Assembly (NCBI GenBank): GCA_007376385.1
Contig: VMGC01000002.1
Coordinates: 128,001-192,000, forward strand
Source: Parcubacteria group bacterium Gr01-1014_8
GTDB taxonomy: Bacteria > Patescibacteriota > Minisyncoccia > Phycocordibacterales > UBA2100
Length of the DNA: 64,000 bases
Direction of reading: 5' to 3'
Within the stretch, counting starts at the first letter, position 1. The number at the start of each line of letters is the position of its first letter. The position numbers were made by a program, and so were the translations under genes. The notes beneath the pieces were generated by a model. That model was not told the DNA's origin, did not search any database, and saw only the letters and a list, made by a program, of their open reading frames with translations. Shown piece by piece: positions 8,013 to 46,659 of the stretch.

Positions 8013-9458
8013 GTGACCCCGGCTCCAGAGACGAACATTCCGACGATACTGGTGGCCCTCGGAGGTACTGGAGACTTAATGAGGCGGAAAGTGATACCCG
8101 CCTTTTTTTATCTCTACAAACAAGGGGCGCTTCCGGACAAATTTCGGCTCGTCGGTTTTTCGAGACGAGATATGACGGATGAGCAGTTCCGTGAATATGT
8201 AAAAGAGGTTATCGTGGCACACGCGGGGGAGCTCATTTTTCCCGAGATGATAGATTCTTTTTTGAAGCTTTTTAAGTTTCAAAAGGGAGAATTCAGCGAC
8301 AAAAAAAGTTACCGCGACCTTAAAAAGACGATTGATGAGTGCGATAAAGAGTGGGGCGTATGCTCAAATAAATTATTTTACCTGGCTGTTGCGCCGGAGT
8401 TTTACGAAACAATATTTAAAAACCTATCTGATTCGAAGTTGTCGGAGCCATGTGATGAAGATGGCGGCTGGACACGCCTTATCATTGAGAAGCCCTTCGG
8501 TGTTGATCTGAAGACGGCTAAAAGCATTGAGCGGCTCCTTACCAAGCTTTTTCTGCCGGAACAGATATATCGTATTGACCATTATCTGGCCAAAGAAATG
8601 TTACAGAATATTCTTACGTTCCGCTTCTCGAATAATTTATTCGAGAAACACTGGGGACGGGACTCAATAGAACGCATTTACATAAAATCGCTTGAGGAGA
8701 TAGGCGTTGAAAAGCGCGGTGCATTCTATGATCCGGTGGGCGCATTTCGCGACGTGGGCCAAAATCACTTTTTGGCGATGATGGCTCTGGTCACCATGGA
8801 ACATCCGATAAGTTTCGATGCAAAGGCGATCCAAAGGAAACGAGCGGATGTGCTAAAGAAATTGAAAATTATCAAAAAAAACGAAATACCGAAAGCCACA
8901 TTTCGTGCGCAGCACGAGGGCTACAGAACCATCGCTGGTGTTGCGAAAAATTCCGCGACGGAAACATACTTCAAAATAAAAGCGGAAGTTGCAACGAAGC
9001 GATGGAAGGGAGTACCGATAATTCTTGAAGGCGGCAAGCGATTGGGGGCGCCAGAGAAGGAAGTCATCATTACCTTCAAGCATCCAAAACAGTGTCTTTG
9101 CCCGAAAGACGGACCACATCACAAGAATGAGATAATCATCCGTTTTGAACCCAGGGAAGAGATTCTCATCGAATTCTGGTCCAAAAAACCCGGCTTCACG
9201 ATGGATACTGCGCCGCGCATGCTCCACTATATTCTAAGGGAACCAAAAGCGCATATTCCGTACATCGAGGAATACGCGAAGCTCCTTTTGGATTGCATTC
9301 GTGGGGATCAGATGCTGTTCGTCTCCACGTCCGAGATACAGGCGATGTGGCGCTTCACCGATCCCATCCTTGACGCATGGAAGAAGGGTTTGGTACCGTT
9401 GCATTCGTACAAACCGGATACAAAAGAAATACTACAAACATCTAACTATATACAATAG
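8013..9458 (+). CDS. zwf: Glucose-6-phosphate 1-dehydrogenase
   Basis: GGTGDLMRRK NADP motif and the signature RIDHYLAKE. GTG start. Confidence 0.85.
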   Translation: MTPAPETNIPTILVALGGTGDLMRRKVIPAFFYLYKQGALPDKFRLVGFSRRDMTDEQFREYVKEVIVAHAGELIFPEMIDSFLKLFKFQKGEFSDKKSYRDLKKTIDECDKEWGVCSNKLFYLAVAPEFYETIFKNLSDSKLSEPCDEDGGWTRLIIEKPFGVDLKTAKSIERLLTKLFLPEQIYRIDHYLAKEMLQNILTFRFSNNLFEKHWGRDSIERIYIKSLEEIGVEKRGAFYDPVGAFRDVGQNHFLAMMALVTMEHPISFDAKAIQRKRADVLKKLKIIKKNEIPKATFRAQHEGYRTIAGVAKNSATETYFKIKAEVATKRWKGVPIILEGGKRLGAPEKEVIITFKHPKQCLCPKDGPHHKNEIIIRFEPREEILIEFWSKKPGFTMDTAPRMLHYILREPKAHIPYIEEYAKLLLDCIRGDQMLFVSTSEIQAMWRFTDPILDAWKKGLVPLHSYKPDTKEILQTSNYIQ

Positions 9459-9460
9459 AT

Positions 9461-10450
9461 ATGCAAAAAGAGATAGGAATGATCGGACTTGGAAAAATGG
9501 GAGGGAACATGGCGCGACAGCTCGTGGAAAAAGGATGGAATGTGCACGGTATGGATGCGGACCCTGCGACAACACAAAAACTCGGAAAGGAGGGTATACA
9601 AGGAGCGTACTCGATACACGAACTTGTCTCGAAACTGAAAGCCCCGCGTGTGGTATGGCTCATGGTACCCGCAGGGAAACCGGAAGACGATCTGCTGTTT
9701 GGCAATGACCGACATCATGACCGACATCGTAAGTCGAACACATTGACCGACTTACGATATCGGTCACGGTCATCCGTAAAAGATGCGGGGCTTGTACGTT
9801 TACTTTCACGGGGCGACGTTATCATTGATGGGGGTAATTCTTATTACAAAGATTCAATATCGCGCGCGAAGAAAGTCGCAACATTCGGCATCAAATTCAT
9901 TGACGTTGGATTTTCTGGCGGCCCCGCGGGGGCTCGAAACGGAGGCTGTCTCATGATCGGCGGGGATGAAAGCTCGTTCAAGCGGCTCGAACCGTTGTTC
10001 AAAGACCTTGCGCGCGACAATGGGTATCAATTCTTCAAAGGTGTTGGAGCGGGCCATTTTGTAAAGATGGTCCACAACGGCATCGAATACGGCATGATGC
10101 AGGCGTTGGGGGAAGGTTTTGCGATGTTAAAAAAGACACCGTTCAAACTGGATCTCACGCGTGTTGCGGATATATACAATAATGGAAGCGTTATCGAGTC
10201 GCGCTTGGTAGGATGGATGAAGAAAGCGTTTCAAGAACATGGAGAAGACTTGAAGCAGGTCTCAGGTTCGGTTGGGCACACTGGCGAGGGCGAATGGACG
10301 GCAAAGACTGCGCGAGAAATGAAAATTCCGGCAAAAATAATTGGGGAATCGTACAAGTTTCGCGTTCAGTCAAAGAAAAAGCCGTCGTTTACCGGCAAAG
10401 TCGTGTCCGCATTGCGTGGACAGTTCGGAGGACATAATATTAAAGAGTAA
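9461..10450 (+). CDS. gnd: 6-phosphogluconate dehydrogenase (short YqeC/Gnd-like form) carrying an 81-nt in-frame insertion
   Basis: GMIGLGKMGGNMA, DGGNSYYKD and GAGHFVKMVHNGIEYG motifs. 27 extra residues (LLFGNDRHHDRHRKSNTLTDLRYRSRS) lie between KPEDD and SVKDAG, relative to homologs. Confidence 0.75.
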   Translation: MQKEIGMIGLGKMGGNMARQLVEKGWNVHGMDADPATTQKLGKEGIQGAYSIHELVSKLKAPRVVWLMVPAGKPEDDLLFGNDRHHDRHRKSNTLTDLRYRSRSSVKDAGLVRLLSRGDVIIDGGNSYYKDSISRAKKVATFGIKFIDVGFSGGPAGARNGGCLMIGGDESSFKRLEPLFKDLARDNGYQFFKGVGAGHFVKMVHNGIEYGMMQALGEGFAMLKKTPFKLDLTRVADIYNNGSVIESRLVGWMKKAFQEHGEDLKQVSGSVGHTGEGEWTAKTAREMKIPAKIIGESYKFRVQSKKKPSFTGKVVSALRGQFGGHNIKE

Positions 10451-10452
10451 CT

Positions 10453-11400
10453 ATGAACAGAAACCTAGCGCTTGAATTTGTGCGAGTGACCGAGGCTGCG
10501 GCATACGCTGCAGCGAAGTGGGTCGGGAAAGGCGACAAAATTGCTGCGGATGGTGCGGCGGTAGACGCGATGCGAGAGCGTTTCAACGAGATAGAGTTCA
10601 GCGGGACCATCGTCATTGGCGAGGGAAGCAAGGACGAGGCGCCAGAATTATATACAGGCGAAAAAGTAGGGAAAGGCAAAGGGCCGGTGATGGACCTTGC
10701 GGTGGACCCATTGGAGTGCACCGACAGCGTTGCCTTTGGACGCTTCAATGCTCTAAGCGTTATTTCAGCAGGAGCTAAGGGAAGCCTTCTTTCAGCGCCT
10801 GATACCTATATGGAAAAGATCGCTGCAGGCCCCGGCGCGGGTAAAGTAATCGATATAGATGCACCTGTCGCAACAAATATTAAAAAGGTGGCAAAGGCGC
10901 TCGGGAAGGATGTCGGGGAGATCACCGTGGTGATTTTAGACAGGGACAGGCATATCGAACTCATCAATGATGTTCGGAAGGCAGGAGCGCGTGTTCGATT
11001 GATAACAGATGGAGATGTGGCAGGAGGTATTGCGCCGTGCATGCCAGAGAGCGGCATTGACCTATTGATGGGCATTGGCGCTTCCGCCGAGGCGGTGCTC
11101 GCGGCGACTGCGATAAAGATTATGGGGGGAGAGCTTCTCTGCCGGTTCAAACCAAAAGACGAGAAACATGCGAAATTGGTTTCGGATCACGGGCACACCA
11201 CGAAGAGGATATTCAAGACGAGCGACCTCGCCAAGGGGAACGAGCTAACGTTCACCGCGACCGGTGTTATTGACGGGCCGCTTCTCCAAGGAGTGAGGAT
11301 TCTAAGGGACATCGCGATAACACATTCCCTCGTCATACAGGGCGTCTCGGGGACACTTCGCTACATAACGACCCATCACAAACTCCCTGCGTATAAATAG
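10453..11400 (+). CDS. glpX: Fructose-1,6-bisphosphatase class II
   Basis: N-terminal LALEFVRVTEAAA..AAKWVGKGDK and overall GlpX-family similarity. Confidence 0.85.
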   Translation: MNRNLALEFVRVTEAAAYAAAKWVGKGDKIAADGAAVDAMRERFNEIEFSGTIVIGEGSKDEAPELYTGEKVGKGKGPVMDLAVDPLECTDSVAFGRFNALSVISAGAKGSLLSAPDTYMEKIAAGPGAGKVIDIDAPVATNIKKVAKALGKDVGEITVVILDRDRHIELINDVRKAGARVRLITDGDVAGGIAPCMPESGIDLLMGIGASAEAVLAATAIKIMGGELLCRFKPKDEKHAKLVSDHGHTTKRIFKTSDLAKGNELTFTATGVIDGPLLQGVRILRDIAITHSLVIQGVSGTLRYITTHHKLPAYK

Positions 11401-11449
11401 ATCTGCTACACTGCAAAAGTGACACTAATTATTTTATTAATATATCTTT

Positions 11450-12445
11450 ATGTCTTTACAATCAATCGCAAAGCAGATGGTCGCAAAGGGAAAGGGCATC
11501 CTCGCAGCGGACGAAAGTTCGGGAACGATAGAGAGGAAGTTTGCGAAAGTCGGACTGACTTCGACAGAAGATAATCGGCGGGCGTATCGCGGAATGCTTT
11601 TTACCTCGCCAGGTATTGGAAACTATATTTCGGGAGCCATCCTTTTTGATGAAACGATAAAGCAAAAGGCGCCCGACGGCCGCACAATGGTCTCCATTCT
11701 GGAAGCGGAAGGAATCCTGCCGGGCATAAAAGTCGACCAAGGTACGAAGGATATGGAGGGTTCGCCGGGCGAGAAGATCACCAAAGGGCTCGACGGACTT
11801 GGCGAACGTCTAAAAGAATATGCAACGTTGGGAGCAAAATTTGCGAAGTGGAGATCGGTCATTACGATAGGAAACGGTATCCCGACCGATGCAAACATCA
11901 AACAGCAAACAAAAGATTTGGCTGCGTACGCGCTGGAGTGCCAGAAAGCCGGCATTGTTCCGATGGTTGAGCCGGAAGTACTCATGGATGGCGGCCACAC
12001 GATTGAAAGATGTGTTGAGGCAAGTGAAAAGACGCTCACTGCACTTTTTGAAGAGCTGAAGGCAGCAGGGGTAGATATATCGGGGACTATTCTCAAGACG
12101 AACATGATGGTTCCCGGCAAGGAGAGCGGTACGAGGGCAACACCAGAACAAGTGGCGGATGCGACTGTCGCCGTATTCAAGAAAGTTCTTCCAAATGATC
12201 TGCCAGGTCAGGCATTCCTATCTGGCGGGCAGGAAGATGTGGAAGCGACAGAGAATTTGAATGCCATCAACAAAAAGGGACCTTTCCCCTGGAATCTTTC
12301 ATTCTCATATGGCCGCGCACTTCAAGATTCGGCGCTCAAGGCATGGAACGGAAAATCAGAAAATATCATCGCTGCGCAACAGGTGTTTCTCAAGCGGGCA
12401 AAAATGAATTCACTTGCGACGGAAGGCAAATATAAAGGAGAGTAG
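11450..12445 (+). CDS. fba: Fructose-bisphosphate aldolase, class I (eukaryote-like type)
   Basis: GKGILAADESSGTIERKF, the hallmark of class I (Schiff-base) aldolases. 331 aa. Confidence 0.75.
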   Translation: MSLQSIAKQMVAKGKGILAADESSGTIERKFAKVGLTSTEDNRRAYRGMLFTSPGIGNYISGAILFDETIKQKAPDGRTMVSILEAEGILPGIKVDQGTKDMEGSPGEKITKGLDGLGERLKEYATLGAKFAKWRSVITIGNGIPTDANIKQQTKDLAAYALECQKAGIVPMVEPEVLMDGGHTIERCVEASEKTLTALFEELKAAGVDISGTILKTNMMVPGKESGTRATPEQVADATVAVFKKVLPNDLPGQAFLSGGQEDVEATENLNAINKKGPFPWNLSFSYGRALQDSALKAWNGKSENIIAAQQVFLKRAKMNSLATEGKYKGE

Positions 12446-12483
12446 TCGCATTTGAAACCTAATTTTTCAGCAATATCGCATGA

Positions 12484-12527
12484 TACCTTAGGTGTGCCGA
12501 CCGGCACACCTAAGGTATTCAGGTTTT
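12484..12527. terminator. Bidirectional intrinsic terminator between convergent fba and HAD genes
   Basis: Perfect 36-nt palindrome ATACCTTAGGTGTGCCGA|CCGGCACACCTAAGGTAT, followed by a T-run. Confidence 0.7.
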
Positions 12528-12534
12528 TGGCGGA

Positions 12535-13182
12535 CTACAATAAAGAATGCCCGTGAAGGACGATAGGAAGAATATCTTCGATTGTGTACACGATGTGGTC
12601 CGGTTCGTACGCGACGAGATCAGCGTGGGGTCCGTATGAAATACCAATAGTCCCGACACCGGCGGCTTTTCCCGCTTGGATGTCGACTGGCGTATCGCCG
12701 ACAAACCACGCGTCTTTCGCCTCTACATCTACCGCTCGGAGGGCTGCAGACACGTGTTCCGGGTCTGGCTTGGCTCGAGTGACATCATCTTGAGACAGCA
12801 AGGCATCAAACATGCTCACTATTTTTACGTGTTGCATGGTGGCGATGGACGATTTTCTCATACGATTTGTCACTGTTGCCAGCTTGATGCCCTTGTCTTT
12901 AAGCGTCTGCAGCGTTTCTTTTACGTTTGGAAATATCATTACTAACTGAAGATTTTTTTCTTGAAAATCGCGATGCGCTTGCATAAGCCGCAGGGCATCT
13001 TTTTCCGGGAACAGCATTTCATAGTTCTCTCTCAGCGTTTTACCCTGGCTTGCGAGAAGCACTGCAGTTGCCCGTGAAATAGGCGCTCCTTCTTCAGTGG
13101 TAACATGCTCGTAAGCACGAATAATGTACTCGTACGTATCAAGCAGAGTCCCATCGACATCAAAAAGTACTGCTTTTGTCAC
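12535..13182 (-). CDS. HAD-IA family hydrolase (phosphatase / beta-phosphoglucomutase-like)
   Basis: Motif I LFDVDGTLLDT, then downstream motif II and a GDT..D motif. GTG start. Confidence 0.7.
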   Translation of the reverse strand: MTKAVLFDVDGTLLDTYEYIIRAYEHVTTEEGAPISRATAVLLASQGKTLRENYEMLFPEKDALRLMQAHRDFQEKNLQLVMIFPNVKETLQTLKDKGIKLATVTNRMRKSSIATMQHVKIVSMFDALLSQDDVTRAKPDPEHVSAALRAVDVEAKDAWFVGDTPVDIQAGKAAGVGTIGISYGPHADLVAYEPDHIVYTIEDILPIVLHGHSLL

Positions 13183-13296
13183 TGGAAGATTATACCTAAC
13201 TTCAGGAGAACTCGTATTTCTCTCACTTTGACAGGAGTCATATATCTCCGTATGATGTTTTTTTCGCCCCTATAATAAGGCACACTTCCTAGGCAC

Positions 13297-15522
13297 ATGA
13301 GGCATATATTCTTAATCGTGCTTGCTGTCGCTTTTGCTGTATCTCTTGCAGCTTCAGTTTTTACGTTGATGCAAGTGAACAAAGAGACAGATGAGTTGTC
13401 GAAGAAGCTCAGGGAGAGGACGCTGCTTCTTGCGGATGGTCTTGCAGAGTCCGCGGCTCCTGCGTACGCGCGATATGCCACGAGTACGCTGGAAAAGTTG
13501 GCGAACACCTTTACGAATCGCGAGCGTCTCATCGGCCTTGCATTTTATGACACGCGCGGTAATAAAATTGCCGGTTCGAGCGGCGTCACAGATGAAATGC
13601 TGAAAAATGCGCCGATTCTCGATACATTCAATAGCACCGAGCCTGACGACGCTTTTGCAATTACCGAAGGGACGAGAAAATATTATTTCGCGCAACCACT
13701 CCACTCTGACGATGCCTATATTGGCTCGCTTGTACTTGTGCAGGATGCCAGTGATATCGATGTGGCAATGAGCAGGATATGGCGAGACACATTTCTGAAA
13801 CTTTTCGTATATTTTCTCCTTTTTGCCGTCGCCATCGCAGCCCTTGTCTACTTTGTGCTTTTCAAACCGCTATCGAATTTAGCTGAATCTATCCGCCAGG
13901 CGCGAATGAATAAAGATGCGCGTGCTCCTCAACCCTCGCACCACAATTTTTTTCTGCAACCTCTTGCGATGGAAGTCTCGAAACTTGCGTCTTCACTCGC
14001 GCAGGCACGAACTGCTGCAAGCGAAGAGGCGCGTATGCGCCTTGAAAAGATTGACACCCCTTGGACGGAGGAGAGGCTAAAGGAATTCATAAAGGCGTAT
14101 CTCAAGGATAGGCCTATCTATGTCGTTTCGAATCGAGAGCCCTACATACACTCCAAGGATCGCGGAGAGGTCACCTACTCGGTGCCTGCGAGCGGCATGG
14201 TGACAGCGCTTGAGTCTGTCATGGCGGCCTGCGGAGGGGAATGGCTCGCTCATGGCAGCGGAAATGCTGACAAAGAAATGGTCGATGCGGAGAGCAAGAT
14301 CCGTGTCCCACCAGATGAGCCGAAATATACCTTGAAGCGTATTTGGCTGAATCCAAAAGAGGTCAAGGGCTATTATGTCGGTTTCTCGAACGAGGCTCTG
14401 TGGCCGCTGTGTCATATAGCGCATACGAGGCCGACCTTCAGAAAGGAAGACTGGCTGATGTACAAGCGCGTGAACGGCAAGTTTGCTGAGGCGCTTCTTG
14501 CGGAATTAAAAGGCGTCGAGCGCCCCATAGTGTTGATACAAGATTTTCATCTTTCTCTTTTGCCGCGGATGATAAAGGAGTCGCGTCCGGACGCACAGGT
14601 CGGTCTTTTTTGGCACATACCCTGGCCGTCCGCAGAAGGCTTCAGTATCTGTCCTTGGAGAAAAGAGATACTGCAGGGAATGCTCGGCGCGGATATAATC
14701 GGTTTTCATACGCAGCAGTTCTGCAATAATTTCCTCGAAACTGTCGGAAAAGAGATCGAATCGCTTATCGATCTGGAGCAATTTGCTGTTACGAGCGATG
14801 AGCACACATCATTCATCAAGCCATTTCCTATAAGTATTTCGTTCACTGACGCAATGGAGGGAAAGACGTCGATAGCGCCTGATCGCGCTGCTCTTGAAGC
14901 GATGGACATTCGAACAGAGTTCGTCGGACTTGGCGTGGACAGGCTCGACTATACGAAGGGAATTCTTGAGCGATTCAGAGGGATCGAATTTTTTCTTGAC
15001 GCTCATCCGGATTTTTATAAACGATTTACGTTCTTGCAGGTCGCACCTCCGAGCCGCGAGGAATCGGAAAAGTATCGGGATTATGCAGTTGCCGTCGAGG
15101 CAGAAGCAGCCCGAGTGAATGCAAAATTCAGAAAGAATGGATGGCAGCCCATTCGTTTTGAAAAAAGGCATTTTTCGCACTCGGAACTTGTGCCGCTCTA
15201 CCAAACAGCGAACTTTTGTCTTGTGACATCTCTGCACGACGGCATGAACTTGGTCGCCAAAGAATACGTGGCAGCAAGAGATGATGAAGCAGGAGCCCTC
15301 ATCTTGAGCAAATTCACCGGCGCTTCTCGCGATTTCAATCGCGGTGCGCTTATCGTCAATCCCTATAGCGCCGAAGAGGTCTCGGAAGCTATCCACCGTG
15401 CTCTCGTCATGCCCGCCACTGAGCAGCATCGTAGAATGAGATCCATGCGAACATCAATACGAGACTACAATGTGTATCGCTGGGCGGCTGAATTTATAAA
15501 AGCAGTTGCAGCGCTCCGATAA
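13297..15522 (+). CDS. otsA: Membrane sensor-like domain fused to trehalose-6-phosphate synthase (GT20, OtsA)
   Basis: C-terminal ~480 aa is a typical OtsA (YVVSNREPY..., GGLVTAL-like and HIPWP motifs). N-terminal ~250 aa has TM1, a ~140-aa extracytoplasmic segment, TM2 and a coiled linker. Confidence 0.8.
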   Translation: MRHIFLIVLAVAFAVSLAASVFTLMQVNKETDELSKKLRERTLLLADGLAESAAPAYARYATSTLEKLANTFTNRERLIGLAFYDTRGNKIAGSSGVTDEMLKNAPILDTFNSTEPDDAFAITEGTRKYYFAQPLHSDDAYIGSLVLVQDASDIDVAMSRIWRDTFLKLFVYFLLFAVAIAALVYFVLFKPLSNLAESIRQARMNKDARAPQPSHHNFFLQPLAMEVSKLASSLAQARTAASEEARMRLEKIDTPWTEERLKEFIKAYLKDRPIYVVSNREPYIHSKDRGEVTYSVPASGMVTALESVMAACGGEWLAHGSGNADKEMVDAESKIRVPPDEPKYTLKRIWLNPKEVKGYYVGFSNEALWPLCHIAHTRPTFRKEDWLMYKRVNGKFAEALLAELKGVERPIVLIQDFHLSLLPRMIKESRPDAQVGLFWHIPWPSAEGFSICPWRKEILQGMLGADIIGFHTQQFCNNFLETVGKEIESLIDLEQFAVTSDEHTSFIKPFPISISFTDAMEGKTSIAPDRAALEAMDIRTEFVGLGVDRLDYTKGILERFRGIEFFLDAHPDFYKRFTFLQVAPPSREESEKYRDYAVAVEAEAARVNAKFRKNGWQPIRFEKRHFSHSELVPLYQTANFCLVTSLHDGMNLVAKEYVAARDDEAGALILSKFTGASRDFNRGALIVNPYSAEEVSEAIHRALVMPATEQHRRMRSMRTSIRDYNVYRWAAEFIKAVAALR

Positions 15523-15523
15523 T

Positions 15524-16300
15524 ATGAGGTATTCCGAGTCGGTGCTTCCGGTGATGAGGGCGATCAGAGACATGCTTCTCCCAGAGTGGGGCGTCGCGAA
15601 AGCCGTCCATCAAAAAACAGCGTCCTCATGGAGCGTCGTTACGGCGCTCGATATCGAAATAGAAAAATTTGTGAGCGCCGAATTGGCGCATCTCCACCCT
15701 GATATTGAATTTGTCGGAGAAGAGCAAGGGGGGAATAGAAGTGCGAAGAAATTCTGGTTGATGGACCCGATAGACGGAACGGCTCACTTTATCCGCGGCC
15801 TGCCGTTCTGCACGTCGATGCTTGCATTGGTCGACAGAGGGCATGTCGTTTTTTCTGCCATATACGATTTTATACACGACGAAATGTATTTTGCTGATAA
15901 GGGGAAAGGAGCGTTCTGCAACGAAAAGAAGCTTTCAGTGAGTTCGCGAACGTTAAAAGATTCTTTCGTCTCGTTCGAGACGGATATTGCAATCGAGAAG
16001 AATGCTAATTTGCGACAAAAAATGCTCTCGCAAACGAACGTAATGACGACATTTTGTGCAGGCTGGGAATTTGCAATGGTCGCATCAGGAAAAATTGATG
16101 CGCGAATATGTCTCGACCCGTTTGGCCAAGATTATGATTTCGCTCCTGGTACGCTATTGGTAATGGAAGCAGGAGGCGTCGTCACGAACCTTGATTCGCA
16201 CGAATTTGACTATACGAATTTGGATCTCATCGCAGCAAATCCGCTTGTGTATAAAGACCTTACGGAGGGAGAATCAGCATTATTCCCTCTCGGGCGCTAG
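15524..16300 (+). CDS. Inositol monophosphatase family phosphatase
   Basis: WLMDPIDGT motif and EE..G metal-binding residues. The start is 1 nt after the otsA stop. Confidence 0.7.
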   Translation: MRYSESVLPVMRAIRDMLLPEWGVAKAVHQKTASSWSVVTALDIEIEKFVSAELAHLHPDIEFVGEEQGGNRSAKKFWLMDPIDGTAHFIRGLPFCTSMLALVDRGHVVFSAIYDFIHDEMYFADKGKGAFCNEKKLSVSSRTLKDSFVSFETDIAIEKNANLRQKMLSQTNVMTTFCAGWEFAMVASGKIDARICLDPFGQDYDFAPGTLLVMEAGGVVTNLDSHEFDYTNLDLIAANPLVYKDLTEGESALFPLGR

Positions 16301-45894: not shown

Positions 45895-46068
45895 CACCAC
45901 TCCTTCGGGGTTGGGTGAAAGTCCCAATCGGCGGTATAGCCCGCGAGTTCTTAGGGACACGATTTGGTGAGATTCCAAAGCCGACCGTACAGTCGGGATG
46001 AAAGAAGGAAGCGAGGCACCCTTGTTGGATGCTTGCGTGGTAACCCCGATGGATCGGGGTTTTTTATT
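45895..46068 (+). ncRNA. FMN riboswitch (RFN element) with an SD-sequestering/terminator hairpin
   Basis: TCCTTCGGGGTTGGGTGAAAGTCCCAATCGGCGGTATAGCCCGCGAG...GGTGAGATTCCAAAGCCGACCGTACAGTCGGGATGAAAGAAGG matches the RFN core. Followed by CCCCGATGGATCGGGGTTTTTT, directly upstream of ribE. Confidence 0.85.
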
Positions 46069-46071
46069 TAT

Positions 46072-46659
46072 ATGTTTACAGGAATTATCACACATACCGG
46101 GACTATCTCTCGTACATCTCCATCAAAGATTGCGATTCGTGCAGATCGCGATTTTGTGCAAAAGTTGGGTTACGGCACCAGCGTTAGTGTGGGCGGAGTA
46201 TGTCTCACCGTTATCTCAAAAAATAGCGATTCGTTTTCGGCGGACATTATGCCGGAAACCGCACGGCGTACTACCTTGGGAAGTCTTCATCGCGGTGACT
46301 TGGTAAATTTAGAGCATCCGGCAACCCCCTTGTCGTTCCTTTCGGGTCACATAGTGCAAGGTCATATCGATGGTATAGGGACATTACGGCAGATCCGTGC
46401 GCACAAGATGGGTTGGATCGTGTCGATCGCCTCTCCGGCAGCTCTCCTGCGCTACATCGTCGCGAAGGGATCGATAGCGGTAAATGGCATTTCACTTACG
46501 GTCATCGGAAGGGGCCGCTCATACTTCACGGTAGGTATAATCCCTCACACATGGAAAACCACGACGTTCCATGAACTCGCGCAGGGGAGCAGTGTCAACA
46601 TTGAAGTGGATGTCCTCGCAAAGTATGTCGAGACATTTGTTCGGGATCGCCGCATATGA
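46072..46659 (+). CDS. ribE: Riboflavin synthase alpha subunit
   Basis: MFTGIITHTGTI N-terminus and an internal repeat of the lumazine-binding half. Confidence 0.85.
   Translation: MFTGIITHTGTISRTSPSKIAIRADRDFVQKLGYGTSVSVGGVCLTVISKNSDSFSADIMPETARRTTLGSLHRGDLVNLEHPATPLSFLSGHIVQGHIDGIGTLRQIRAHKMGWIVSIASPAALLRYIVAKGSIAVNGISLTVIGRGRSYFTVGIIPHTWKTTTFHELAQGSSVNIEVDVLAKYVETFVRDRRI

Follow-up and report, generated by a model that had tools for sequence, protein, structure and literature searches.

The gene located at positions 13297 to 15522 of the window, the 64-kb stretch of DNA analyzed here, is a single ORF with an ATG start that encodes a sensor-fused trehalose-6-phosphate (T6P) synthase of 741 amino acids, in which a first membrane-spanning helix (TM1), an extracytoplasmic domain of about 140 residues, a second membrane-spanning helix (TM2), a helix-loop-helix segment and a complete GT20 domain of the OtsA type follow each other in one protein. 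Its product is probably a membrane-integral one-component receptor-enzyme, composed of a WalK-type input module on a competent GT20 synthase and served by a downstream step of an IMPase-family phosphatase, so that synthesis of a protective sugar would be switched directly by an external cue. This gene and, unless indicated otherwise, all features described below lie on the forward strand. The corresponding NCBI record, P0035, contains 734 amino acids that are 100% identical to the product of this ORF, with the start assigned to the GTG at codon 8; as M1 is conserved across the family, the ATG at 13297 is favored over this GTG. A promoter-like site, TTGACA-17-TATGAT, with 11 of 12 consensus matches is present at 13228 to 13256, 41 nt 5' of the start codon. 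The number of such sites found by the consensus scan in the region is no higher than the shuffle expectation, and hence its assignment as the otsA promoter is suggestive only. Rfam and repeat scans around the otsA locus revealed nothing relevant to the gene, and antisense ORFs within 13297-15522 were set aside as genes because the reading frame that they overlap is strongly conserved.

Membrane helices were assigned from Kyte-Doolittle hydropathy using windows of 19 residues. TM1 (aa 4-26; 13306 to 13374) corresponds to a peak of 2.79 at aa 4-22 and is part of a helix spanning aa 2-58 in the AF2 model, with the N-terminus in the cytoplasm, while TM2 (aa 166-190; 13792 to 13866) corresponds to a peak of 2.75 at aa 169-189 and lies within the continuous AF2 helix 152-204. 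Both helices are thus present by hydropathy and by AF2, and the alpha/beta domain between them (aa 27-165; 13375 to 13791) counts 139 residues in the AF2 model, in agreement with the original prediction of two TM helices flanking a domain of about 140 residues. Since the GT20 domain is cytoplasmic, this intervening domain is predicted to face the outside of the cell. The location between the two helices claimed in that prediction hence stands, but its description as periplasmic does not, because CPR bacteria are generally considered monoderm and extracytoplasmic is the better term. The domain has the arrangement of a PDC or single-Cache-like sensor, with a long N-terminal helix, a central antiparallel sheet and a C-terminal helix that runs into TM2. 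In the window protein, models of the Pfam Cache clan stay under their gathering scores (sCache_like 15 bits vs 27, dCache_3 13.7 vs 25.7), and matches at the level of the family are weak, with dCache_1 found in 28 of 65 members (best E 5e-7) and Cache_WalK in 16 of 65. NCBIfam models of CreC, AtoS, DgcN and WalK match the N-terminal part, the DgcN model in 5 of 12 N-termini, and the matches to kinases are confined to their input part. The N-terminal module is homologous in fold and sequence to the input modules of kinases and cyclases; it is common in the lineage but is sensor-like and not an ordinary N-terminal extension, which was the outcome that would have spoken against the original prediction. 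Conserved residues of the outside domain are found in the membrane-proximal helices and the distal loops are variable (0.40-0.41 column identity), a pattern which favors either a cue of a general kind (envelope, osmotic or ionic) or ligands that differ between lineages. Variable distal loops also fit a scaffold that binds no ligand.

TM2 is followed by a helix-loop-helix (aa 191-253, with AF2 helices at 152-204 and 221-253), whose first part has a HAMP-like helix-connector-helix organization (13867 to 14016), with AS1 at aa 191-204, the connector at aa 205-220 and AS2 at aa 221-240 according to AF2 secondary structure. The layout expected for HAMP, taken as a helix-connector-helix of about 50 residues with a proline directly after TM2 and hydrophobic residues in heptads, can be recognized in KPLSNLAESIRQAR, a connector of 17 residues and then PLAMEVSKLASSLAQAR. 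Alignment by hhalign to a hand-assembled HAMP reference of 11 sequences, a choice that weakens this result, gave a probability of 77.5% (E 1.9e-5) with 48 columns in register, the NCBIfam CreC HMM aligns to aa 128-235, and the Foldseek alignment to full-length WalK extends over the HAMP-like region. On the other hand, Pfam HAMP (PF00672) has no match in the window protein and is found in only 2 of 65 family members (E 0.02) and, using the segment aa 186-258, in 2 of 28 (E 0.004), and the family profile of aa 186-258 retrieved no HAMP chain among PDB chains, giving chance matches only (e.g., ClpB). A search for histidine kinases as a source of HAMP in 80 related loci and in the window identified a single H-box ORF, and AF2 confidence in the full-length model falls to 53-67 across aa 200-260. 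Because direct HMM matches are weak, the segment is called HAMP-like and not a HAMP member, and its assignment as HAMP by sequence is moderately supported. The likeness to HAMP or signal-transmission segments suggested originally is borne out by the helix layout and hinted at by hhalign, with no support from Pfam HAMP in the window protein or from the PDB profile search.

The most conserved part of the whole protein is the junction ASEEARMRLEKLDTPWTAERLKEF, which connects this segment to the catalytic domain. Across 120 sequences, the stretch ASEEARMRLEK(I/L)DTPWT(E/A)ERLKEFIKAYLKDRPI (aa 241-274; 14017 to 14118) is near-invariant, with mean column identities of 0.93 for aa 241-257 and 0.88 for aa 258-270 as compared to 0.76 for the catalytic domain. 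Structurally, the AS2 helix continues into the junction, is broken at DTPW and is followed by a short helix (aa 258-270) leading into strand beta1 of GT20.

A survey of OtsA homologs for the same N-terminal fusion, as had been proposed along with the original prediction, showed that the module is encoded in at least 180 GTDB species genomes, mostly of CPR/Patescibacteria, plus an Acidobacteria MAG. More than 120 protein clusters (~735-765 aa) align across 100% of the length with 56-67% identity, and an uninterrupted ORF of at least 700 aa is present in 72 of the 80 related loci, the other 8 being cut by contig ends. Given more than 120 full-length clusters and 180 genomes, the architecture is no product of chance or of assembly. 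The claim that it is not a standard one therefore holds for characterized OtsA proteins but not across many CPR lineages, where the fusion is the standard form. Database entries annotate the fused protein plainly as trehalose-6-phosphate synthase, and no description of an OtsA sensor fusion was found in the literature on trehalose synthesis or OtsA in CPR and on HAMP or Cache fusions; a paper on a Parcubacterium merely mentions that trehalose synthesis is encoded (PMC5220378). Five further protein clusters carry the N-terminal module through the end of AS2 (aa 4-237, 31% identity) joined to a GCS2-family ligase, while stand-alone GCS2 relatives (~460 aa) are without it. Its occurrence on both GT20 and GCS2 enzymes thus defines a portable unit, and as the part shared with the GCS2 fusion ends at AS2, the module recombines at the boundary between HAMP and output, as receptor input modules do.

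The GT20 (OtsA) catalytic domain covers aa 275-737 (14119 to 15507) with a Pfam PF00982 match of 382.7 bits (cut-off 32.5, E 3e-114), confirming the assignment of residues ~255-741 to GT20 OtsA in the original prediction, and the PDB matches to Tps1 and OtsA have E values of 1e-79 to 1e-62. In an alignment with E. coli OtsA from NC_000913.3, residues R10, G23, Y77, W86, D131, H155, R263, K268, R301, D362 and E370 (numbered with Met1) are all invariant, and the key residues of OtsA are likewise invariant across 73 family members. We take R9, G22, Y76, D130, H154, R262, K267, R300, D361 and E369 in mature numbering to be the catalytic and the UDP-glucose- and glucose-6-phosphate (G6P)-binding residues of OtsA. 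The active site of the T6P synthase is thus intact, and the domain is predicted to catalyze the formation of T6P from NDP-glucose and G6P. The NCBIfam OtsA equivalogs TIGR02400 and PRK14501 are the best-scoring families, yet they remain below threshold (425 vs 564.85 and 473.5 vs 634 bits, respectively), and the GgpS model scores 298 bits. With Pfam HisKA and HATPase_c, no matches were obtained in the 741-aa protein, which is not a kinase.

Directly downstream, the gene for the IMPase-family phosphatase (15524 to 16300; Pfam PF00459, E 9e-46, 157 bits, cut-off 27; DPIDGT motif in the translation) begins one base past the stop codon of otsA (TAA-T-ATG), and the two genes are probably translationally coupled. 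The best PDB match of its product is 2p3n, deposited as an inositol-1-monophosphatase, which we take to be the dual IMPase/FBPase of Thermotoga maritima, and SuhB structures match too. A canonical OtsB (PF02358) is located directly downstream of the fused otsA in approximately 37 of the 80 related loci, whereas the IMPase fills this slot in 9 loci and in the window, being adjacent in ~12% of loci; counting the window, 11 loci contain the IMPase and none contains both enzymes. The exchange can be followed in syntenic operons, as the order ROK-OtsA-OtsB-P-ATPase in locus L009 becomes ROK-OtsA-IMPase-P-ATPase in L010 and L047, with the OtsA proteins of L009 and L010 being 86% identical. Such mutual exclusion, together with the swap within syntenic operons, supports the IMPase as a candidate T6P phosphatase in place of OtsB. 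Consistent with the original prediction that canonical OtsB is missing, tblastn with a family OtsB identified no homologue in the window; the contig extends over at least 200 kb and an OtsB could be encoded elsewhere in the same genome. Two neighbors had been put forward as T6P phosphatases, of which the IMPase is retained on the basis of its position in the OtsB slot. The second, a HAD-IA hydrolase of the PpaX/phosphoglycolate-phosphatase type on the reverse strand (12535 to 13182; Pfam HAD_2, E 8e-41), transcribed divergently from otsA, was rejected as the primary T6P phosphatase, since it matches PpaX/PGP-type HAD-IA models and not PF02358, and only 2 others among the 80 loci have a homologue close to otsA (L001 and L048; in L048 a distant HAD with 26% identity overlaps the otsA start). 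To our knowledge, no IMPase-family enzyme acts as a T6P phosphatase, all known enzymes with this activity (OtsB, Tps2) belonging to the HAD superfamily, and no description of an IMPase-type T6P phosphatase was found in the literature.

Taken as a receptor-enzyme, the protein would function as a dimer, by analogy with other Cache/HAMP receptors. TM2 would be moved by a change at the membrane or at the outside domain, and the HAMP-like bundle would make the conserved helix aa 221-253 rotate or shift in response. As this helix is linked by the DTPW turn and by helix 258-270 to strand beta1, the site of the G6P-binding SNR motif, acceptor binding or closure of the GT-B lobes would be altered and T6P output would rise or fall post-translationally. 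The co-translated IMPase, as the presumed replacement of OtsB in the lineage, would then dephosphorylate T6P to trehalose serving as a protectant. The analysis itself shows the architecture, the folds and the conservation, that the module is portable, that the active site is intact and that OtsB and IMPase exchange in one slot; the nature and direction of the signal, the dimerization, the allosteric control and the substrate of the IMPase are inferred.

The same architecture could also arise if the N-terminal module were a membrane anchor or scaffold without any signaling role, tethering T6P synthesis for channeling into envelope glycolipids, to an exporter or to a partner, with the Cache-like domain serving a structural or protein-interaction purpose. 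We hold this to be rather unlikely, even if the variable pocket-side loops and the sub-threshold Pfam Cache and HAMP models of the window protein would suit it, and GT4/GT2 genes and a P-type ATPase often neighbor otsA in relatives. A plain anchor requires neither a HAMP-like segment nor a junction conserved above the catalytic domain, and it does not account for homology to kinase and cyclase input modules or for the intact transfer of the module, at the HAMP/output boundary, onto an unrelated enzyme; furthermore, the dominant partner gene is OtsB rather than a lipid-transfer gene.

A product other than T6P, such as glucosylglycerol-phosphate or another glycosyl-phosphate, with the IMPase acting on that product or in inositol or fructose-bisphosphate metabolism, seems improbable. 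It would fit the OtsA equivalog scores under cut-off with a GgpS match of 298 bits, the MGH1-like hydrolases and GT4 genes found nearby in some relatives and the best matches of the IMPase to generic IMPase/SuhB structures. However, GgpS lies far behind the OtsA models in score, every UDP-glucose- and G6P-binding residue of OtsA is invariant and a canonical trehalose-phosphatase adjoins in nearly half of the loci, and a role of the IMPase as FBPase would be redundant with the GlpX FBPase at 10453-11400 in the window (read from the translation by eye). Finally, the many database entries that are fragmentary or have frameshifted tails might raise the suspicion that the two halves are uncoupled and that the fusion is either an artefact of gene calling or assembly or what is left of a degenerate histidine kinase, but this reading is effectively refuted by the uninterrupted ORFs, the full-length clusters, the missing HisKA and HATPase matches and the near-invariant junction, and we assign it a hardly appreciable probability.

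Receptor input modules such as Cache and HAMP drive kinases, chemoreceptors, cyclases and phosphatases, and if the receptor-enzyme reading is correct, a glycosyltransferase of central osmolyte metabolism would be added to their direct outputs. This would illustrate how stress protection can be controlled in tiny genomes with few transcription factors. More broadly and more tentatively, at somewhat less than even confidence, the family may represent an undescribed receptor class, in which a portable WalK-type Cache-TM-HAMP-like module directly gates primary-metabolic enzymes (GT20 and GCS2) and no kinase or second-messenger cyclase, giving regulator-poor CPR bacteria and some Acidobacteria instant post-translational control of protectant synthesis by an external cue, with the IMPase as the first non-HAD T6P phosphatase. 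This large family is annotated throughout as ordinary OtsA, and its regulatory half has therefore escaped attention. The near-invariant junction would provide a handle for mutagenesis of how a HAMP-type signal reaches a GT-B enzyme, and from the OtsB-to-IMPase exchange one would expect a T6P phosphatase that is new and not homologous to OtsB, relevant to pathway reconstruction in uncultivated bacteria, where a missing OtsB is otherwise read as an incomplete pathway.

Among known systems, the nearest match for the N-terminal part is the input module of WalK (YycG; PDB 4ywz, 5is1, 7dud and the full-length integrative model 9a5d), at a sequence identity of ~13-17%; unlike in WalK, PAS, DHp and ATPase domains are absent, the output is a GT20 glycosyltransferase and there is no sign of YycH/YycI-type partners. 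In its catalytic part, the protein shares the GT-B fold and GT20 signature with E. coli OtsA (33% identity) and fungal Tps1 (1gz5, 1uqt, 5huv, 5hut), and in relatives it has, as OtsA does, an operon partner that dephosphorylates T6P. Characterized OtsA and Tps1 start at the VVSNR strand and are, as far as known, soluble, whereas the fused protein has 274 additional N-terminal residues with two membrane passes and scores below the NCBIfam equivalog cut-off. The downstream gene product shares the IMPase fold and the DPIDGT motif with 2p3n, SuhB and HisN and differs from them in its position in the OtsB slot. We know of no recognized use of GT20 as a receptor output domain, and no such report was found in the literature. 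Plant TPS1 has an auto-inhibitory N-terminal extension directly before its GT20 domain and hence offers a precedent for N-terminal control of TPS activity, although this extension is soluble, unrelated and without a membrane or sensor domain. The DgcN/YfiN diguanylate cyclase and HAMP adenylate cyclases such as Rv3645 combine Cache/PAS-TM-HAMP input with a non-kinase output and follow the same logic, with a sensor, two TM helices and HAMP driving cytoplasmic catalysis in one polypeptide; their output domains make second messengers, whereas that of the fused protein belongs to primary metabolism and supplies the precursor of a compatible solute.

The ORF at 13297-15522 (+) proved to be genuine, as had been predicted: it runs from an ATG to a TAA at 15520-15522, encodes a 741-aa product and includes a complete GT20 domain at aa 275-737 (Pfam, E 3e-114). 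The database record P0035 ('trehalose 6-phosphate synthase', MAG 'Parcubacteria group bacterium Gr01-1014_8') is 100% identical to this product and comprises 734 aa, beginning at GTG codon 8 of the ORF (window 13297-13318); since M1 and the first residues of the fused OtsA are kept in family alignments, ATG 13297 is preferred as the start. A promoter-like TTGACA-17-TATGAT lies at 13228-13256. The ATG of the downstream IMPase-family gene (15524-16300, +) is only one base past the otsA stop, a spacing that points to translational coupling within a two-gene operon. Matches in the PDB were confined to Tps1/OtsA and close GT20 relatives (VldE-type pseudo-glycosyltransferases), with E values from 7e-79 to 1e-28. 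Upon alignment with E. coli OtsA (sequence taken from NC_000913.3), the residues R10, G23, Y77, W86, D131, H155, R263, K268, R301, D362 and E370 (E. coli numbering with Met1) were found to be invariant in the window protein and in family members, and because these are the UDP-glucose-/G6P-binding and catalytic residues of the OtsA crystal structures, the GT20 enzyme should be active. NCBIfam OtsA equivalog models are its top matches, yet under their cut-off (425 vs 565 bits), and the glucosylglycerol-phosphate synthase model scores far lower (298 bits).

Two N-terminal TM helices had been proposed ahead of this domain and are borne out by hydropathy, as Kyte-Doolittle profiles (19-residue windows) reach maxima of 2.79 (aa 4-22) and 2.75 (aa 169-189), defining two strong segments, TM1 at ~aa 4-26 and TM2 at ~aa 166-190. 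When aa 1-275 were modelled with AF2 on a 65-sequence alignment (mean pLDDT 84), a long helix at aa 2-58 led from TM1 into the outside domain, which continues with a short helix and then an antiparallel sheet of five strands accompanied by two small helices; aa 152-204 form a helix that passes through TM2, and after a 16-residue loop come helices at aa 221-253 and aa 258-270, separated by a break at DTPW. Foldseek ranked the full-length WalK integrative model 9a5d first (E 1.8e-10), with an alignment of 270/275 columns reaching across TM2 and the WalK HAMP region. Evidence for a sensor at the sequence level is weaker than that from the fold, but consistent with it: Pfam matches across the family were dCache_1 in 28/65, Cache_WalK in 16/65 and SMP_2 in 50/65, with the window protein itself under the gathering score for all three, and NCBIfam models matched family N-termini for CreC in 10/12, AtoS in 9/12, DgcN/YfiN in 5/12 and WalK in 4/12 (best E 3.4e-10). 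CreC model positions 147-251, which correspond to its TM2 and HAMP, align to aa 128-235 of the window protein. The resemblance of the N-terminus to sensor kinases, claimed in the original prediction, is thus upheld by the WalK fold match and by the sensor-kinase and cyclase models; a histidine kinase identity is ruled out, since Pfam detected neither HisKA nor HATPase domains in the window protein.

The predicted HAMP resemblance of the segment after TM2 held for its topology: a Pro in KPL right after TM2 is followed by AS1 of ~14 aa, a connector of ~17 aa and a heptad-patterned AS2, a modelled helix-connector-helix arrangement that fits HAMP. Direct tests were mixed, and the segment is hence called HAMP-like: hhalign against a hand-assembled set of 11 HAMP sequences gave a probability of 77.5% (E 1.9e-5, 48 columns in register), Pfam HAMP yielded weak matches in 2/65 family members, and a family profile of aa 186-258 retrieved no HAMP chains from the PDB. 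Mean column identity across 120 full-length sequences is 0.93 at the junction (aa 241-257), 0.88 in the helix after the DTPW break (aa 258-270) and 0.79 in the core of outside helix alpha1 (RTxLLADSLKESVEP, aa 38-55) vs 0.76 in the GT20 domain (aa 275-737), with 0.40-0.41 in the distal sensor loops and strand (aa 94-123) and 0.35 in the connector (aa 205-220). Thus, constraint is strongest in the helices near the membrane and in the junction ASEEARMRLEKLDTPWTAERLKEF, which runs directly into strand beta1 bearing the SNR motif (equivalent of E. coli Arg9). The small residues Ala237, Ala241 and Ala245, together with the invariant charged R238, E244, R246 and R248, would suit a signalling coiled coil with tight packing.

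The fusion is widespread. Nearly all of the best 120 clusters of a full-length search have ~735-765 aa, with 96-100% query coverage and 56-67% identity, the exceptions being one of 798 aa and P0035, which is the window protein; among the named sources are Kaiser-, Taylor-, Nomura-, Doudna- and Magasanikbacteria. Scanning one genome per GTDB species revealed the N-terminal module in 180 genomes, the best 80 of which are nearly all CPR-named, from Parcubacteria/Paceibacterota and Microgenomates (Davies-, Gottesmanbacteria), with a few titled just 'bacterium' or 'uncultured Gammaproteobacteria'. Some auto-assigned labels look unreliable, as in the loci L004, L005, L010, L021, L023, L079 and others, TPA_asm MAGs titled 'uncultured Candidatus Saccharibacteria' or 'uncultured Gammaproteobacteria', because gene content and synteny in these loci agree with Parcubacteria. 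An exhaustive profile search yielded 1698 representatives with E<=1e-3, of which 634 reached E<=1e-10; fragments were numerous among them. The fusion is not confined to CPR bacteria, since a 761-aa member cluster (PYV27934.1) comes from an Acidobacteria MAG, on a 60% GC contig (L082) that also encodes an outer-membrane beta-barrel protein and an ECF sigma factor, with OtsB 1.3 kb downstream of the fused otsA. The intervening gap (L082:10286-11608) shows no clear ORF and contains a duplicated stretch whose translation is REEAHGWKGTNRGYRCSQREGLSL and which may be a small repeat element.

Neighbourhoods were counted from clustered ORFs of 80 related loci and the window. In ~37 loci, otsA is followed directly by the gene of a canonical trehalose-phosphatase (PF02358, E 5e-33; median gap 3 bp); in 9 loci and the window an IMPase-family gene takes that place, and in 7 loci a GT4 does; overall, 38 loci carry OtsB and 11 IMPase, with none shared. 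The cleanest case is an exchange of the phosphatase slot inside one syntenic operon, between L009, ordered GT4-MGH1-like hydrolase-ROK-OtsA-OtsB-P-type ATPase, and L010 and L047, ordered ...ROK-OtsA-IMPase-P-type ATPase, with identities between L009 and L010 of 86% for OtsA and 76% for ROK. In a crude NJ tree, IMPase-linked genes are interspersed among OtsB-linked ones within one major clade. No OtsB homologue was found within the 64-kb window, whose IMPase has a DPIDGT motif and, as best PDB match, 2p3n, deposited as an inositol-1-monophosphatase. Occupation of the OtsB slot, mutual exclusion and the L009/L010 exchange support the IMPase as the candidate T6P phosphatase it had been proposed to be. 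The same proposal for the divergent HAD gene (12535-13182, -) found no support: its product is a PpaX/PGP-like HAD-IA with a homologue near otsA in only two other loci of the 80. In L048, a locus without OtsB and IMPase, a distant HAD-IA (26% identity to the window HAD) is co-directional with otsA, immediately upstream and overlapping its start, and may represent a third way of providing the phosphatase step. The conserved clusters around the fused otsA lie at L009:528-12244, L010:4053-13680 and L047:7835-15692; their hydrolase is MGH1-like/trehalase-like (PF22422, E 2e-76), the ROK-family gene (PF00480) possibly encodes a sugar kinase, and the ~890-aa gene is read from sequence motifs as a P-type cation ATPase. 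The GT4/hydrolase/ROK/otsA/phosphatase/ATPase cluster has the appearance of a unit for making and turning over trehalose, tied to an ion pump.

In the window, just upstream at 8013-12445, four co-directional ORFs, syntenic with the Kaiserbacteria locus L001, are read by translation as sugar-phosphate enzymes (G6P dehydrogenase, 6PGDH-like, GlpX-type FBPase and class I aldolase), and as this block adjoins otsA, G6P supply would be its neighbour. The 6-phosphogluconate-dehydrogenase-like ORF, so read by eye (9461-10450), carries at 9707-9784 an in-frame, highly basic 26-aa insertion, DRHHDRHRKSNTLTDLRYRSRSSVKD; the closest orthologue, in L001, lacks this insertion and is ~80% identical elsewhere. 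Where the aldolase and HAD genes converge, positions 12483-12518 form a perfect inverted repeat (17 bp, 2-nt spacer) that probably serves as a bidirectional terminator. Rfam places an FMN riboswitch (RF00050, 104 bits) at 45897-46013, overlapping the predicted start of ORF 45964-46659.

A dimeric receptor-enzyme is the best-supported reading of the fused OtsA, whose architecture, fold, conservation, module portability, active site and gene context are all observed. A cue from outside the cell or from the membrane would be passed by TM2 and the HAMP-like segment to the invariant helix, which would relay the signal to the N-lobe of the GT-B enzyme, setting T6P output, and the coupled phosphatase (OtsB; in the window the IMPase) would turn T6P into trehalose; dimerisation, the stimulus, and the existence and sign of allosteric control we infer. 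The main rival, that the N-terminal module is a non-signalling membrane anchor or scaffold, appears unlikely. The module also occurs on a second enzyme: P0171, a 690-aa protein from a single ORF at L081:3373-5445, carries a TM-Cache-TM-HAMP-like module (205 bits vs the family profile; 31% identity to window aa 4-237) and departs directly past AS2 into a GCS2-family (PF04107) carboxylate-amine ligase domain. This fusion is common to five clusters (P0171, P0320-P0323; 72-100% identity), and more than 100 stand-alone GCS2 relatives of ~460 aa, from Patescibacteria and DPANN archaea where a source is named, are all without the module. Joining to an unrelated enzyme at the HAMP/output boundary is expected of a receptor input module, and is not what an OtsA-specific appendage would show.

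In open-access papers and bioRxiv, no description was found of an OtsA-sensor fusion or of an IMPase-type T6P phosphatase; one Parcubacterium paper states that trehalose synthesis is encoded, with nothing further on it (PMC5220378). As a receptor-enzyme, the fused OtsA would work like the Cache-HAMP receptor-enzymes DgcN and HAMP adenylate cyclases, and its input module most resembles the one in WalK, whereas its output is a GT20 enzyme.
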